The position numbers were made by a program, and so were the translations under genes. Positions 10,303 to 51,942 of a DNA stretch of 64,000 bases are shown here, one piece after another. The stretch is from a virus. The notes beneath the pieces are model-generated. The model did no database searches. It was not told the DNA's origin and saw only the letters and a program-made list of their open reading frames with translations. The stretch is from the UHGV virus genome UHGV-0038492, one strand, 5' to 3'. Within the stretch, counting starts at the first letter, position 1. Every line of letters starts with the position of its first letter.

Positions 10303-10956
10303 ATGGAACCACTACGTTTAATGACCAGAACGCTACTGATTCCTATCTGGGAATTGAAGCTTGCCCCATTGTCTGCCTCTAATGGGGAGGTCATTGATTT
10401 TATTAAAGACGAAGAATTTGTGTTGACGGCTTTCCAGGAGACGCTGCATCGTTATTATAATGCAGTGCCTTTATCTGGCGGATTAGATTGCCCTGGTGTA
10501 GAAGGGAGTACGTCTGCGTTAATCGCAGAGTATTTAGAACAGAAAGGAATCGGGGTTGGGAAAGGCCGGGTTTATGTGGACGCCGATAAACTGAGGAGTT
10601 ACCAGATTGAGCTGACGTTTCAGATAAGAAAATTACTTACCCGCTACGGTCTTTTCTCGATTAACTGTAAGGTTGATGACGTACGGATGTTAGACCACGG
10701 TTTTACCACTGTCCTCAAAACCTGTCGCGGTAAAAGATTCGTACAGTTTGCGTGGTGGGTACCAGTATTGCGTGGTGAGAGAAAAACGGTGGAGGGGTTG
10801 TACGGCTGGGCGCTATGGAGCGAAGTTCCAGTAAATAAACTCGATGCAGTTATTCCAAAGCACCGAAACGTTCCGCTTAGCAGTTTATTTACTTCCGGCG
10901 AGAACACTACGTGGGCTGAATTCGTTAATAACGTTATGTCAATTGGGGAACAATAA
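10303..10956 (+). CDS. hypothetical protein
   Basis: 217-aa ORF, AAGGAG RBS. Confidence 0.65.
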   Translation: MEPLRLMTRTLLIPIWELKLAPLSASNGEVIDFIKDEEFVLTAFQETLHRYYNAVPLSGGLDCPGVEGSTSALIAEYLEQKGIGVGKGRVYVDADKLRSYQIELTFQIRKLLTRYGLFSINCKVDDVRMLDHGFTTVLKTCRGKRFVQFAWWVPVLRGERKTVEGLYGWALWSEVPVNKLDAVIPKHRNVPLSSLFTSGENTTWAEFVNNVMSIGEQ

Positions 10957-11432
10957 TGCAGCAATTAGATATTACCGAAGACAAAATCTCCGCTAAATTT
11001 CCACAATTACGTGAATACATCAAAGACTTAAATTCGATACGCGAAACACCGGTCCGCATTACCTTAGCGGTAGAAGATGACATTACACACGGTATTGCGA
11101 TTTGGGAACCGGGCAATCTTATCTATTTGGTGGTGGCGGAAGGTTCTCGACGTTTCGGTGTGGGTTCGTTCTTATTGCAGTACGTTCAGTTGAATTCCGA
11201 TCGTCAAATGGTGACGTGTCGTGTCCACCCTTCGAACATTGACGGCCTGTGTTTCTTTTCGAAAAAAGGCTACCAGATTGACCGTTGGTATATCGCCAGC
11301 GACTCTCGTCGGTATTTTCGTATGACGAACGGTAACGTTGTTTCGTCATACGCCCCGCCGGAAGAAGGATATTTGGTGGATTTTATCGAAAACACGCCCA
11401 TCTTTCTCTCTGTTGCGGATAAAATTTATTAA
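10956..11432 (+). CDS. hypothetical protein, possible GNAT-like fold
   Basis: 158-aa ORF; segment GIAIWEPGNLIYLVVAEGSRRFGVGSFLL loosely resembles a GNAT acetyl-CoA binding core. Confidence 0.45.
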   Translation: MQQLDITEDKISAKFPQLREYIKDLNSIRETPVRITLAVEDDITHGIAIWEPGNLIYLVVAEGSRRFGVGSFLLQYVQLNSDRQMVTCRVHPSNIDGLCFFSKKGYQIDRWYIASDSRRYFRMTNGNVVSSYAPPEEGYLVDFIENTPIFLSVADKIY

Positions 11433-11925: not shown

Positions 11926-12314
11926 TGAAACGTTTTATTACTCCATTTCTAATGTTACTTTCGTTTTCTGTATTAGCTGATTTTAAACCTTACGATATCA
12001 GTCGTTACGAACCCGCTGTCCCTGGCGATAAACCGGTTGTGTTTAAAGCAGACGACCAACCCGTCACTGCGGTTCAAAACGATGAGTTTGCAGTGGTGAA
12101 TTACGGCAAAACGGACTTATGTCCTGCGGGTGGATTTTATCTGGTGAACATCAAACGTCGGACTTACCAGTTTGTTGATCCGGGTAGCTGCTCTGCAATG
12201 GTTAAGGTGACGTTAGAAACCGTACCTTACACGAATAAAAACATTAATATACAACGTTTAACCTTTTATGCGGGTGATGAAATCACAGCACGTTATCCGT
12301 TATACGGGTATTAG
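11925..12314 (+). CDS. secreted protein with N-terminal signal peptide
   Basis: MKRFITPFLMLLSFSVLADF has the n/h/c organisation of a Sec signal peptide; ATG overlaps upstream stop. Confidence 0.6.
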   Translation: MKRFITPFLMLLSFSVLADFKPYDISRYEPAVPGDKPVVFKADDQPVTAVQNDEFAVVNYGKTDLCPAGGFYLVNIKRRTYQFVDPGSCSAMVKVTLETVPYTNKNINIQRLTFYAGDEITARYPLYGY

Positions 12315-12337
12315 TGATTAGCCCCCACGGAGTTCGT

Positions 12338-12976
12338 ATGTCTTTTGTAATTGATTTCGACGTTGGCCACAGACAGAACTTACTTAATCTCGTTAGTTAT
12401 TGTAACAGTGACAGTGTACGGAAAAAGCTTTCGGCTGAAAAGGTAGACGTTACGCTCGTCGGTGCCCCAACACCGGAAGGACGCTATAAGGTAAAGTTAA
12501 CGAACCGTAACGACATAAACGATGCGGTACTGATTACCTACACAAAGCTTCAACTGAACGACTTCCTTGAGATTCCTGCCAAGTATCTGGATTGGTTTGA
12601 TTTCGAAAACGGTCAACCTAAGAACTACGATACGTGGGCAGCTTCCGCTAAAGTCGCTGTAGAGAAAATGTGCCAAGACCGAGGTATGGTGATATCTCGC
12701 GCTTGGGACACCGGTTCACAGTGTCACATTGAGTTTGACGAGTCTATCGAACGGTATGTGGTTGTCTACGAGTGCGACTCTTTTATTTATAGTGCGAGAA
12801 ACCGATTCATCTTACCTCTACACTTAGGGCAGGTGATCAACGACACGACATTAGACGGTCTTGATTACAATAACGAACTGAACAAGAAACCATTGGCGGA
12901 TTTGGACGGTGAGTTAGAAGTGTGGATGGGTCAGGCGTTGGTTGAGACAGTCGTCTTAAGCGGCCTGGAAGTATAA
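12338..12976 (+). CDS. hypothetical protein
   Basis: GGAG RBS 6 nt upstream of ATG at 12338 (track start 12314 is a GTG without RBS); terminator downstream. Confidence 0.65.
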   Translation: MSFVIDFDVGHRQNLLNLVSYCNSDSVRKKLSAEKVDVTLVGAPTPEGRYKVKLTNRNDINDAVLITYTKLQLNDFLEIPAKYLDWFDFENGQPKNYDTWAASAKVAVEKMCQDRGMVISRAWDTGSQCHIEFDESIERYVVVYECDSFIYSARNRFILPLHLGQVINDTTLDGLDYNNELNKKPLADLDGELEVWMGQALVETVVLSGLEV

Positions 12977-12986
12977 TAGTAACGGC

Positions 12987-13030
12987 GGGTAGAGAGAGCT
13001 TTCGGGCTCTCTCTACTTTTCTTTTTTTTC
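12987..13030 (+). terminator. intrinsic terminator
   Basis: GGGTAGAGAGAGC...GCTCTCTCTAC hairpin then T9. Confidence 0.75.
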
Positions 13031-13059
13031 CATTATCGACGGTCTTTATGGAGGTGACC

Positions 13060-13614
13060 ATGAAAGACTATAGAATTGCAATCATCGGGTCTCGAGAAAC
13101 ACCGGAAGACGTTATGCAGGAAATGTTAGACACGTTACGGGAAGGGTTTCGAATCTTACGAAAGAAAGGCTACACGATTACCACCCGTTCTGGCGGGTGT
13201 TATAAAGGCCCAGACCAGCTTCAGTTTATGATAGCACGTACCGAGGACGTTAAGAGCGTTTGTTATCTGCCGGATGAAAAGAAAATGTGGTTAGGGAAAA
13301 TACACCCTAAGGTAGAGTTTCGTTATATCCCACAAGACGTTCAGTACCGAGCGATAGTTGCTTCACTTCACCCAAATCCAGATAAGCTCTCACCGATTGC
13401 CTGGGCGCTACACGGCCGTAATCTGAATATCATCGCAGGTGACTGCTTAGACGAACCGGTAGACGCAGTCTATTACTTTAGCGACCACGACAAACACGGA
13501 AACGCAAAAGGTGGTACTGCGATGGGTGTAAAATACGCGAAGTCAATCGACGTTCCTTGTTACTACCATACCGTCGATCGGGATAAGTGGTTGGAAAGTC
13601 TTCGTTTATTATGA
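13060..13614 (+). CDS. SLOG/DprA-like Rossmann-fold protein (tentative)
   Basis: GGAGG RBS 5 nt upstream of ATG at 13060; IAIIGSR followed by RSGGCYKG resembles the glycine-rich strand-loop of DprA/LOG-type Rossmann domains. Confidence 0.45.
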   Translation: MKDYRIAIIGSRETPEDVMQEMLDTLREGFRILRKKGYTITTRSGGCYKGPDQLQFMIARTEDVKSVCYLPDEKKMWLGKIHPKVEFRYIPQDVQYRAIVASLHPNPDKLSPIAWALHGRNLNIIAGDCLDEPVDAVYYFSDHDKHGNAKGGTAMGVKYAKSIDVPCYYHTVDRDKWLESLRLL

Positions 13615-13737
13615 ACTTGACTTTAACCGCGTAGTTGAGTTCAGCGATTCACCGTGCGATGGGAACAGAAGTTACTGTGTATCCGTTAGCAGGGTGAACT
13701 GGGTAAAAGTAAGATCAAAGCAAACGAGTAAATTATC

Positions 13738-14871
13738 ATGTCAACGTTAGATAGCGACTTAGAAGTGCTTTGTGACGATTACGACCGACTCGTAGCGTTA
13801 GAATCCATTGGAGTAAAAGACAATTATCCGGCTATCGTTGCTATCCGTAAACGTTGGCTTTTGGATGATGTGGTTGTTGCGTCAGAGTCTGCGGCCATGA
13901 TGCACCGTGCACAGTTTTTGTCAGACACGGAACCTGATAAAGGGATAGGCAAAGCGGCGGCACGACTCACCGGACGTGCGGTTCGTGGCGTAAGTCGGGT
14001 AGCAGGACGTGCTGCCAGTGCAGGTGCAAAAGCATCGGCGAACTTCGCAGGTAAACATTCCAAACAACTTGCTTTACGTTTTGTGGATTTTGCTGAGGCT
14101 GCGGGTAAAGAAGTCATTAAGGAATTAAAAGAAGCGACGTCTAAAGCGACGACCTTAGAGCGCAAACTGCAAAAGTTAAATGCACGTCTAAATTTAATCG
14201 GTGACAAAGACACCTTAAAACCGGTTGACTGCGACACGGGAAGCTGGACGACCAAAGTTTGTTTAGAAGACAAACCTAACGTAAAAGCGTGTATTGAGTT
14301 CAGTAAGAACCTGAACGCAATGGATGCGATGGTCAACGAGTATACCGTTAAAACGCGCACCATTATCGGTAAGAGCAAGAAAGTTACTGAGAGTGGCTTG
14401 GAGAAAGTAGGTCGCTCAACGAACTGGGCGATTAAACGTAGTGCAGGGCTGTTCGGTATTATCGATCCGTTTAAAACGGTGAAAGCGTATCCGTGGCCAG
14501 GTAACGTGGTGGTCGTTGAACACGACAACGGTAAGATTGAGTGGGCGATTGCCCGTGATGGTGATTTTGGCCACTCAATCAAATCTCTGAACTTACACGA
14601 AATCGGTTCGGCTCTCGAAGCCGTTGAAAAAATTATCCGAGCTTTACGTCAGCGTGGTACGAAGCGACGTAGCGTTGGTTATACCGGTATTTACGATGAA
14701 GTTCAGCGAATGAAAAAAGAGCTGAAGTCGTTAGACGGTCGTGAGTTACGCGATGCTACCGTTCGGTATAAGAACGCACTGCGTTTAGAAGATGCGTTTA
14801 CTACCTCGTTAGTGCGTGTTGCGGAAGGCTTACTGGAATGGTGCAGGTTGTCGCTGATTGAGGTTAAATAA
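13738..14871 (+). CDS. hypothetical protein
   Basis: 377-aa ORF; Ala/Arg-rich low-complexity segment near residue 80. Confidence 0.7.
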   Translation: MSTLDSDLEVLCDDYDRLVALESIGVKDNYPAIVAIRKRWLLDDVVVASESAAMMHRAQFLSDTEPDKGIGKAAARLTGRAVRGVSRVAGRAASAGAKASANFAGKHSKQLALRFVDFAEAAGKEVIKELKEATSKATTLERKLQKLNARLNLIGDKDTLKPVDCDTGSWTTKVCLEDKPNVKACIEFSKNLNAMDAMVNEYTVKTRTIIGKSKKVTESGLEKVGRSTNWAIKRSAGLFGIIDPFKTVKAYPWPGNVVVVEHDNGKIEWAIARDGDFGHSIKSLNLHEIGSALEAVEKIIRALRQRGTKRRSVGYTGIYDEVQRMKKELKSLDGRELRDATVRYKNALRLEDAFTTSLVRVAEGLLEWCRLSLIEVK

Positions 14872-15338
14872 TGCGTATTACTATTATTCTCAAACCCGAC
14901 AGTAAATACGGAAAGTTATACGGCGACCAGGTACTCAAACTGCACAACATGTTGTTCGCAGAAGAGAAAGTGCGTATTAGTCAGTTAACTGGACGTGACA
15001 CGTTCAACCCCATCGAACGTTTAGAAGAGATTTGGCCTCAAGACTATCTCTGTGCGTGTGCGGTGGGTGACAACGAACAGCTTCTGGGATTTATGACGTT
15101 CTCATTGGGTTCTTGCTCAAAAGACACGTTTGTTTACATCGGGAATTACTATGTGATTCCTGAAGCACGTTCTCAAGGGGTAGGGCGTGCGCTTATGGAC
15201 AAAGTCCGTGAATACGGAAAGTCCAAAGGTTGTGGTTGGATGAGTCTGGATGTGTTAGACAACAACGTTAAAGCTATCTCCTTGTATGAGAAAATGGGAT
15301 TCCGTACCGAATGCAGGGAAATGATAAAGGAAATCTAA
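14871..15338 (+). CDS. GNAT-family N-acetyltransferase
   Basis: YVIPEARSQGVGRALMDKVREYGKSKG matches the GNAT motif A (Q/RxxGxG/A acetyl-CoA loop); ATG overlaps upstream stop. Confidence 0.65.
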   Translation: MRITIILKPDSKYGKLYGDQVLKLHNMLFAEEKVRISQLTGRDTFNPIERLEEIWPQDYLCACAVGDNEQLLGFMTFSLGSCSKDTFVYIGNYYVIPEARSQGVGRALMDKVREYGKSKGCGWMSLDVLDNNVKAISLYEKMGFRTECREMIKEI

Positions 15339-17674: not shown

Positions 17675-17715
17675 CTCAGATATATATTACCTTAGTGAGA
17701 TTACACAGTAATCTC
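17671..17715 (+). promoter_or_regulatory. promoter-like motif TTTTCTCAGATATATATTACCTTAG followed by hairpin (copy 1)
   Basis: Near-identical 20-nt AT-rich element recurs at 39209 and 43638; hairpin GAGATTA-CACAG-TAATCTC follows; sits just after a terminator and ~55 nt before the HTH gene. Confidence 0.55.
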
Positions 17716-22966: not shown

Positions 22967-23003
22967 AAATTTAAGATATATTTCATCTATGTGAGAATTC
23001 TCA
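22967..23003 (+). promoter_or_regulatory. variant of the promoter-like motif (TTTAAGATATATTTCATCTATG) with palindrome GTGAGAATTCTCAC
   Basis: Shares AGATATAT and the downstream GTGAGA...CTCAC hairpin and CTCACTTAACTAAA leader with the copy at 43638. Confidence 0.4.
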
Positions 23004-31856: not shown

Positions 31857-31880
31857 TAACCCGCTTATAAAAAAAATATT

Positions 31881-31905
31881 GGGGGGGGGGTAAGCTACTC
31901 CCCCC
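31881..31905 (+). other. G10...C6 homopolymer hairpin upstream of the long fibre gene
   Basis: GGGGGGGGGG TAAGCTACT CCCCCC about 35 nt before ATG 31938. Confidence 0.6.
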
Positions 31906-31937
31906 GATCTTTAGCTCCCGATAGAGAACTTAATATC

Positions 31938-39210: not shown

Positions 39211-39258
39211 TTCTCAGATATATATTACCTAGAGGAGAGCGAAATTTACATTCGCTCT
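39209..39258 (+). promoter_or_regulatory. promoter-like motif TTTTCTCAGATATATATTACCTAG followed by hairpin (copy 2)
   Basis: Identical core to copy 1; hairpin AGAGCGAA...TTCGCTCT; sits after a terminator and ~50 nt before ORF 39286. Confidence 0.55.
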
Positions 39259-41465: not shown

Positions 41466-41487
41466 GGGGAATTTACCCCCCCCCTCC
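41466..41487 (+). other. GGGGA...C9 homopolymer hairpin
   Basis: GGGGAATTTACCCCCCCCC about 30 nt before ATG 41518. Confidence 0.5.
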
Positions 41488-41517
41488 ACATAGAGTAAAT
41501 CCCTAAAGGAGCATTAA

Positions 41518-43637: not shown

Positions 43638-43682
43638 AATTTCAGATATATATTACCTAGGTGAGAGTTCAGCTACTCTCAC
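43638..43682 (+). promoter_or_regulatory. promoter-like motif ATTTCAGATATATATTACCTAG followed by hairpin (copy 3)
   Basis: Identical 18-nt core; hairpin GTGAGAG...CTCTCAC; ~50 nt before ORF 43712. Confidence 0.55.
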
Positions 43683-51883: not shown

Positions 51884-51904
51884 GGGGGGGGGGTGACCTC
51901 CCCC
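51884..51904 (+). other. G10...C5 homopolymer hairpin between the GELDGFTA paralogs
   Basis: ATCGGGGGGGGGG TGACCT CCCCCGAT about 40 nt before ATG 51943. Confidence 0.6.
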
Positions 51905-51942
51905 GATATTTCTTTAACTCGTATTATTAAGGACCTAAGATA

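Follow-up and report, generated by a model that had tools for sequence, protein, structure and literature searches.

Does a small DprA-like phage protein mediate DNA recombination, as its database name says, or does it serve in counter-defence? This question is raised by a gene in the UHGV virus genome UHGV-0038492, of which a stretch of 64,000 nucleotides (the window) was analysed. On the plus strand, the coding sequence at 13060..13614 (stop codon included) encodes a stand-alone SLOG (DprA-like) protein of 184 residues, as supported by the open reading frame (ORF), a match to the PHROG 768 family, syntenic orthologs, and an AlphaFold2 model. With regard to identity and fold, the protein is almost certainly a one-domain Rossmannoid of the SLOG superfamily belonging to the DprA-like clade. 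It adds one more member to a phage family that is already annotated but experimentally uncharacterised. With regard to its role, the best explanation overall, which stands about an even chance of being right, is that this DprA-like SLOG protein is an accessory counter-defence or DNA-protection factor.

The gene, its family, and its fold

Where does the gene start? The protein lies in a plus-strand ORF that spans 13048..13614 in the program-made ORF list, and translation from the ATG at 13060 gives MKDYRIAIIGSRETPEDV...TTRSGGCYKGPDQ... up to the TGA stop codon at 13612-13614. The other in-frame ATG, at 13048, is unlikely to be used, because a Shine-Dalgarno sequence (GGAGGTG, 13050..13056, plus strand) stands 3 nucleotides before the ATG at 13060, the N-termini of the orthologs agree with the latter start (MKKIYKIAVIGSR in SPN3US and MKTYKIAVVGSR in the homolog P0003; general form MK(K/T)(I)YKIA), and on a public contig with an identical protein, gene calling done independently also gives 184 residues. 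The first-pass annotation, which was made from the letters alone, had given exactly this interval, stop codon included. The two motifs it had picked out are residues 6-12 (IAIIGSR, 13075-13095) and residues 43-50 (RSGGCYKG, 13186-13209), and the claimed spacing of about 30 residues corresponds to the 31 residues from R12 to R43. The protein is mildly basic, with an isoelectric point of 8.26 (family median, 8.4).

The gene is real, and its homology goes well past chance. The protein matched PHROG 768 with E=2.7e-42 and 145.5 bits, its residues 1-173 aligning with positions 1-169 of the 191 in the profile, and a tblastn search found matches in 427 phage records, with E=5e-74 to Erwinia phage Asesino. 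An exhaustive HMMER search collected 446 cluster representatives at E<=1e-3; an alignment of 88 sequences drawn from these homologs served for the conservation counts, the family profile, and the AlphaFold2 input. PHROG 768 is present in at least 427 sequenced phage records, among them T4-like, rV5/phi92-like, T5-like, PAK_P/Otagovirus, N4-like, and jumbo phages. Over its full length, the protein has 58-61% identity with its counterparts in Asesino, phiEaH2, SPN3US, and related jumbo phages. Its gene is orthologous to, and syntenic with, that of SPN3US gp92 (SPN3US_0092 / ACQ60_gp174), whose RefSeq name, "DprA-like DNA recombination-mediator protein", derives from PHROG 768. The window protein shares its length class and the conserved gene-order position with SPN3US gp92 and the orthologs in Asesino, phiEaH2, and the other Erwinia/Salmonella jumbo phages. 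In contrast, the SPN3US-type orthologs have an insertion of 14-15 residues after helix 2, which the window protein lacks, and SPN3US gp92 has Ser at the position of Arg43 of the window protein. Membership of SPN3US gp92 in the virion is unmentioned in the main texts and searchable supplements, the sole trace of the protein there being a passenger single-nucleotide polymorphism, P106L, which falls on a non-conserved position.

The AlphaFold2 model has a predicted local distance difference test score of 96.6 and a predicted template modelling score of 0.92. In the predicted fold, a parallel five-stranded sheet lies within a three-layer alpha/beta sandwich, in agreement with solved SLOG structures. 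The Foldseek matches include YpsA, the Moco carrier, and LOG, and the best match in the PDB is DprA. A tentative DprA/SLOG-family Rossmann protein had been called from the two motifs, with structure prediction proposed as the check; every strong match belongs to the SLOG superfamily rather than to an unrelated fold, and the call is further supported by PHROG 768 and the DprA pocket motifs described below.

How close is the protein to DprA itself? When the protein was searched as a single sequence, only two Pfam matches were obtained at E<=10. DNA_processg_A (PF02481) was not among them, and YAcAr (DUF2493, PF10686), with E 0.037 and 14.3 bits, missed its cut-off of 28.2 bits. Single-sequence searches of NCBIfam and of the PDB sequences gave no significant match, and the PADLOC-DB defence models gave 0 families at E<=10. 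A PDB match was obtained only with the family profile, which found the DprA chains 3maj, 4ljk/4ljr, 5mll, and 3uqz at E ~1e-4 over the first 55 residues only, while LOG was at 0.94. In the alignment, 40 of the 88 members touched PF02481, always below its gathering threshold of 29.6 bits (best E 3.3e-8; fused members, 19-21 bits); LDcluster4 was touched by nine members, YAcAr by one, and YpsA and LOG by none. Moreover, PF02481 is the only recurring Pfam label in the 120 best profile hits, and YpsA is a good match by structure only. An hhalign comparison with the single sequence of E. coli Smf gave a probability of 49.8%, and one with an enterobacterial DprA alignment gave 71.7% (E 3.5e-5, 145 columns); the latter alignment is shallow because the search yielded only enterobacterial DprA sequences of at least 68% identity. 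The Rossmann domain of DprA thus appears to be the nearest kin, and the protein presumably works in a similar way. Since the PF02481 threshold was missed, the protein is filed as a member of the DprA-like SLOG family (PHROG 768) and not as DprA proper.

The nucleotide-binding pocket

What has been retained from DprA? Two motifs, G-S/T/A-R and F/L/Y-x-x-R-N/D, were proposed as marks of the DprA domains that bind single-stranded DNA (ssDNA), in distinction from the PGGxGTxxE motif of LOG (Wang et al. 2014, PMC3950713). The window protein has kept the pocket, with the GSR loop, SGG-x-G-x-D, L-x-x-R-N, and GGT; in DprA, this pocket holds one flipped-out ssDNA nucleotide. Motif 1 is G10-S11-R12 in the loop that follows strand 1 (13087..13095, plus strand, as are all features of the gene), which is aligned to the GSR of DprA by both HMMER and hhalign. 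In Helicobacter pylori DprA (HpDprA), the Arg residue of this motif gates the base pocket (PMC3950713). The segment R43-S44-G45-G46-C47-Y48-K49-G50-P51-D52 (13186..13215), which forms the loop behind strand 2 and the beginning of a helix, aligns with SGLAxGID of DprA and is the equivalent of the DprA "SGxAxGxD" element. Within these two motifs, G10, S11, R12, S44, G45, G46, G50, and D52 are invariant or near-invariant among the 88 sequences, G45, G50, and D52 being strictly so, and R43, found in 70 of the 88, is specific to the DprA-like phage family.

Further elements lie in the second half of the protein. H104-P105 (13369..13374; H in 83 and P in 80 of the 88) lies at the "Y-P" pocket position of DprA, where E. 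coli Smf has an aligned Y-P, and H104 would correspond to Tyr108 of HpDprA as read from the alignment. Motif 2 is L117-H118-G119-R120-N121 (13408..13422), which aligns to F-P-R-R-N of Smf (R211-N212). R120 and N121 are invariant, L is found in 79 members, and H118, found in 84, is family-specific. The SLOG "GGT" element, G151-G152-T153 (13510..13518), which stands where the last long helix begins, is invariant (88/88), its DprA counterpart being S-G-S.

Compared with the bacterial DprA/Smf proteins (PF02481; PDB 3maj, 4ljk/4ljr, 3uqz), which usually have accessory SAM and/or DML1/winged-helix domains, the window protein is a single domain without any of these. In the pocket, the Tyr residue of DprA is replaced by the near-invariant His104, a further near-invariant His118 is present, Arg43 precedes the SGG loop, and S-G-S is changed to G-G-T. 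In the hhalign register, Lys137 of HpDprA is replaced by Ala114; this Lys residue is a phosphate clamp whose mutation costs ~230-fold in ssDNA affinity (PMC3950713). The chain ends ~33 residues past the GGT element, whereas ~41 residues lie between Gly164 and Phe205 of HpDprA. Because this stretch makes the dimer contact in the H. pylori protein, the DprA dimer interface is probably incomplete in the window protein. The T4-like members, represented by Phi1, have kept Tyr and Phe in place of the two His residues. Thus, the family ranges from DprA-like to derived pockets.

Could the protein instead be a LOG-type phosphoribohydrolase, which releases the free base from nucleoside monophosphates and thereby remodels the nucleotide pool, or a YpsA-like protein that blocks host division, as in Bacillus? 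Both LOG and YpsA are among the Foldseek matches. On the other hand, the signature PGGxGTxxE of LOG (PF03641, the cytokinin-riboside 5'-monophosphate phosphoribohydrolases) is missing. The corresponding sequence, K150-G-G-T-A-M-G-V-K, lacks both a second Gly-x-Gly spacing and the catalytic Glu, and LOG was not matched in Pfam. These possibilities seem very improbable. Another SLOG protein, ShosA (the DprA-like antitoxin of the defence system ShosTA, PDB 8zva), differs in having 308 residues, extra domains, a host-encoded gene, and a phosphoribosyltransferase toxin partner; no such neighbour accompanies the window gene.

Recombination or counter-defence

Do the relatives of the protein tell its role? 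The fusion partners of the DprA-like phage family are ADP-ribose enzymes and not recombination proteins. Among 22 multi-domain homologs scanned, four have NADAR (P0104, P0111, P0081, P0171), three have DUF4326 (P0082, P0096, P0115), one has Macro (P0104), and one has a second SLOG domain (YAcAr), while no recombination or ssDNA-binding module was found in the 22. A further NADAR fusion (P0319) was found by the profile search. In the fused proteins, the motifs of the family (YAGIGSR, RSGGA.GAD, HP, LH.RN, and GGT) are intact. Iyer et al. 2022 (PMC9503650) pointed to fusions with Macro, NADAR, and DUF4326, predicted that derivatives of ADP-ribose are sensed or cleaved by the SLOG domains of viruses, and stressed that these domains are experimentally uncharacterised. 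The present family shares with those domains (Iyer, Burroughs, Anantharaman, Aravind 2022) the stand-alone occurrence in large phages, the enrichment in jumbo phages, and the three types of fusion, which the present scan recovered independently. It is known that the phage NADAR (AdfN) and Macro (AdfM; T4 Tk.4, phiKZ gp104, Asesino gp217) proteins strip DarT-installed ADP-ribose from DNA (PMC13309987). Thus, the fusion of a DprA-type ssDNA module to such enzymes is mechanistically sensible.

The neighbourhoods of the family gene in other phages are heterogeneous, and several of them have an NAD/ADP-ribose or ligase flavour. In Otagovirus (Pseudomonas phage VCM, L013 686-4058; phiPsa374, L007 1094-4561), a module consists of nicotinamide phosphoribosyltransferase (NAMPT), a small ORF, Macro, a small ORF, and SLOG, and it looks like an NAD/ADP-ribose counter-defence cassette. 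The family gene adjoins an NAD-dependent ligase gene in the T5-like PM135 and is near an RNA ligase gene in phiM7; in another phage contig, an ATP-dependent ligase gene lies three genes downstream, and in an N4-like element, a separate DUF4326 gene is found 4 kb away. In Vequintavirinae, a PhoH-SLOG pairing is conserved, while in the RB49-like Phi1 the family gene lies among head genes. No link of the family gene to uvsX, uvsY, or ssb was found in the neighbourhoods inspected.

The current RefSeq/PHROG name implies a minimal DprA, that is, an ssDNA-binding recombination mediator or protector that works in the phage nucleus and aids a UvsX/RecA-like recombinase. In the same vein, a 2021 survey of jumbo phages, by the group that published the 2022 survey, regarded the jumbo-phage protein as DprA/Smf and a possible additional ssDNA-binding protein. 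The lack of the SAM and winged-helix domains, the Ala residue at the phosphate-clamp position, the short C-terminus with its probably incomplete dimer interface, and the absence of recombination genes from the inspected fusions and neighbourhoods, in which ADP-ribose/NAD enzymes are many, all argue against this idea, and I consider it rather unlikely. The protein is presumably not a classical RecA loader. The only chimallivirus "DprA" shown to be nuclear is gp153 of phage RAY, and its localisation was rejected as a guide to the window protein, since gp153 is not detectably related to it. The sequence of RAY gp153 (L010:7630-8511) gave ~2% in hhalign against both the family and enterobacterial DprA, and only a remote structural match to SLOG was found (BFVD E 4e-5). 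Thus, chimalliviruses may have two "DprA-like" proteins that are not related to each other.

A counter-defence or DNA-protection role linked to ADP-ribose/AMP-type nucleotides or to ADP-ribosylated ssDNA is somewhat likelier than that of a recombination mediator, because fusions to ADP-ribose hydrolases are recurrent and the accessory features of DprA are lost. Taken by itself, such a role is proposed tentatively, at a little below an even chance. The retained pocket, together with the family-specific Arg43, His104, and His118, would bind, and possibly hydrolyse, one phosphorylated ribosyl-base ligand. This ligand may be an ADP-ribose/AMP-type nucleotide that host immunity produces, or else a base of phage ssDNA that has been ADP-ribosylated. 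The window protein would work either singly or together with partners encoded by separate genes, while in relatives the domain is fused to NADAR, Macro, or DUF4326.

Several points weigh against this ADP-ribose role. By sequence and structure alike, the closest kin are DprA proteins, which bind ssDNA and are not enzymes. LOG's canonical catalytic Glu is absent, with no acidic residue two or three positions after the Thr of GGT (M155, G156), and at positions 115 and 116, where basic residues prevail in the family, the jumbo-phage clade has none. Fused members are the minority and stand-alone ones the majority, and NADAR occurs in only one of the 120 best profile hits. Around the gene in the window, GNAT acetyltransferases and an internal head protein are encoded but no NAD/ADP-ribose genes are present, and a single-sequence phmmer search of the 64 kb, a method of low sensitivity, found no NADAR, Macro, DUF4326, or second SLOG gene. 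In the literature, no experimental work on PHROG 768 and no biochemical evidence for any family member was found.

A bolder version is that the family is an N-glycosidase that combines the base-flipping ssDNA pocket of DprA with SLOG chemistry and cuts the base-N-ribose-5'-phosphate bond. The substrates would be ADP-ribosylated DNA bases (DarT-type damage) or nucleotide immune signals, and His104, His118, and Arg43 would be catalytic or phosphate-binding residues. This activity would account for the frequent fusion to Macro and NADAR enzymes; I regard it as improbable. If true, it would represent a third, structurally unrelated class of anti-DarT/anti-signal hydrolases beside Macro (AdfM) and NADAR (AdfN).

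The counter-defence role overlaps with another possibility, namely that the protein inhibits immunity of the Avs type (STAND NTPase). In the EVADES preprint (bioRxiv 10.1101/2025.06.06.658234), the phage "Smf/DprA" SLOG protein ORF83 of Gao et al. 2022 is reported as an experimentally identified inhibitor of type III Avs (Avs3); R89, N90, and T112 are predicted to line its pocket, and it has DUF4326-fused homologs. Going by this description, ORF83 and the window protein have in common the Smf/DprA annotation, the SLOG fold, and the R-N and T pocket residues, and the RN...GGT pattern and the DUF4326 fusion partner are shared by the family. In contrast, the spacing from R to T is 23 in ORF83, as against 33 in the window protein and ~30 in the other members checked, the best PDB match of ORF83 is LOG and not DprA, and D114 of ORF83, an acidic residue after the Thr, has no acidic equivalent in the window protein. 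The comparison covers the described residues of ORF83, and its homology to the family is putative. An equivalent function seems quite improbable. The record OK181862.1 (54 kb) was considered as the source of ORF83 and was rejected, as it is a Vequintavirinae scaffold.

In public metagenomes, six giant, K/E/N-rich proteins of 4,100-4,960 residues (P0112, P0127, P0140, P0142, P0157, P0159) were found to have a copy of the SLOG domain, with the variant L-M-A-R-N, at or near the C-terminus. A Pfam scan of P0112 and P0157 found no match across more than 4,000 residues. These six may be polyvalent or injected proteins of phages.

Genomic setting and implications

Is this a gene of the early region, as the first-pass annotation had it? 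The 58-61% identity of the orthologs, the synteny with SPN3US, and the lineage of Asesino, a nucleus-forming chimallivirus, indicate that the window comes from a phage related to SPN3US and Asesino, which are jumbo phages that form a nucleus. A megablast search with 12000-15000 found no near-identical DNA among 50,697 phage records, and a phage with an identical protein was met only in public read-archive assemblies. The gene order is the same as in SPN3US: an acetyltransferase, three hypothetical proteins, the DprA-like gene, an internal head protein, and an acetyltransferase. The neighbour at 13738-14871 encodes a phiKZ inner-body/internal-head-type protein. The GNAT-type acetyltransferase genes at 10956-11432 (PHROG 7861) and 14871-15338 (PHROG 3810) flank the block, a layout that is kept in SPN3US. 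SPN3US gp93 (273 nucleotides, the gene after gp92) has no counterpart in the window, where an ORF-free spacer of 123 nucleotides is found instead (13615-13737). The predicted RNA fold of this spacer is modestly better than that of shuffled sequences (z -2.55), with no Rfam match; Rfam and tRNA scans gave no matches near the gene or across the window.

Upstream of the gene, a terminator scan and inspection of the sequence revealed an intrinsic-terminator-like hairpin (12987..13029, plus strand) with a 14 bp stem, GGGTAGAGAGAGC/GCTCTCTCTACTT, and a T-run. It ends the upstream five-gene block, leaving ~30 nucleotides before the ribosome-binding site of the DprA-like gene. The assignment to the early region was not upheld: the gene lies among virion/internal-head genes, behind this strong terminator, and no copy of the 15-mer AGATATATATTACCT, described next, is found upstream of it. 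In some other phages, members of the family do sit within early-type regions of small ORFs.

The 15-mer AGATATATATTACCT occurs in exactly three copies (17678-17692, 39216-39230, and 43644-43658, plus strand), with a three-mismatch variant at 22974-22988. All three copies are intergenic and lie directly past T-rich terminator tails, and each is followed a few bases later by a short inverted repeat (GAGATTAC..GTAATCTC; AGAGCGAA..TTCGCTCT; GTGAGAG..CTCTCAC). The core of the 15-mer, TATATTAC, resembles the core of the phiKZ early (virion RNA polymerase) promoter. Because of this resemblance, each of the three sites is a candidate for an early promoter that has a 5' stem-loop. Separately, intergenic hairpins that are built of extended runs of G and of C (e.g., GGGGGGGGGGTAAGCTACTCCCCCC) and lack the customary T tail recur between the plus-strand genes of the window (~31880-31910, ~41475-41500, and ~51885-51910).

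In summary, the gene now has a solid annotation as a gp92-type DprA-like SLOG protein of an SPN3US/Asesino-like nucleus-forming jumbo phage. The name "DNA recombination-mediator" has been spread by annotation pipelines without experimental support and is probably not the whole story; the fusion evidence points instead toward a counter-defence centred on ADP-ribose/NAD. Settling the role of this family would mend a widespread annotation and could add a class of enzymes or binders to the anti-DarT, anti-Thoeris, and anti-Avs repertoire of phages.
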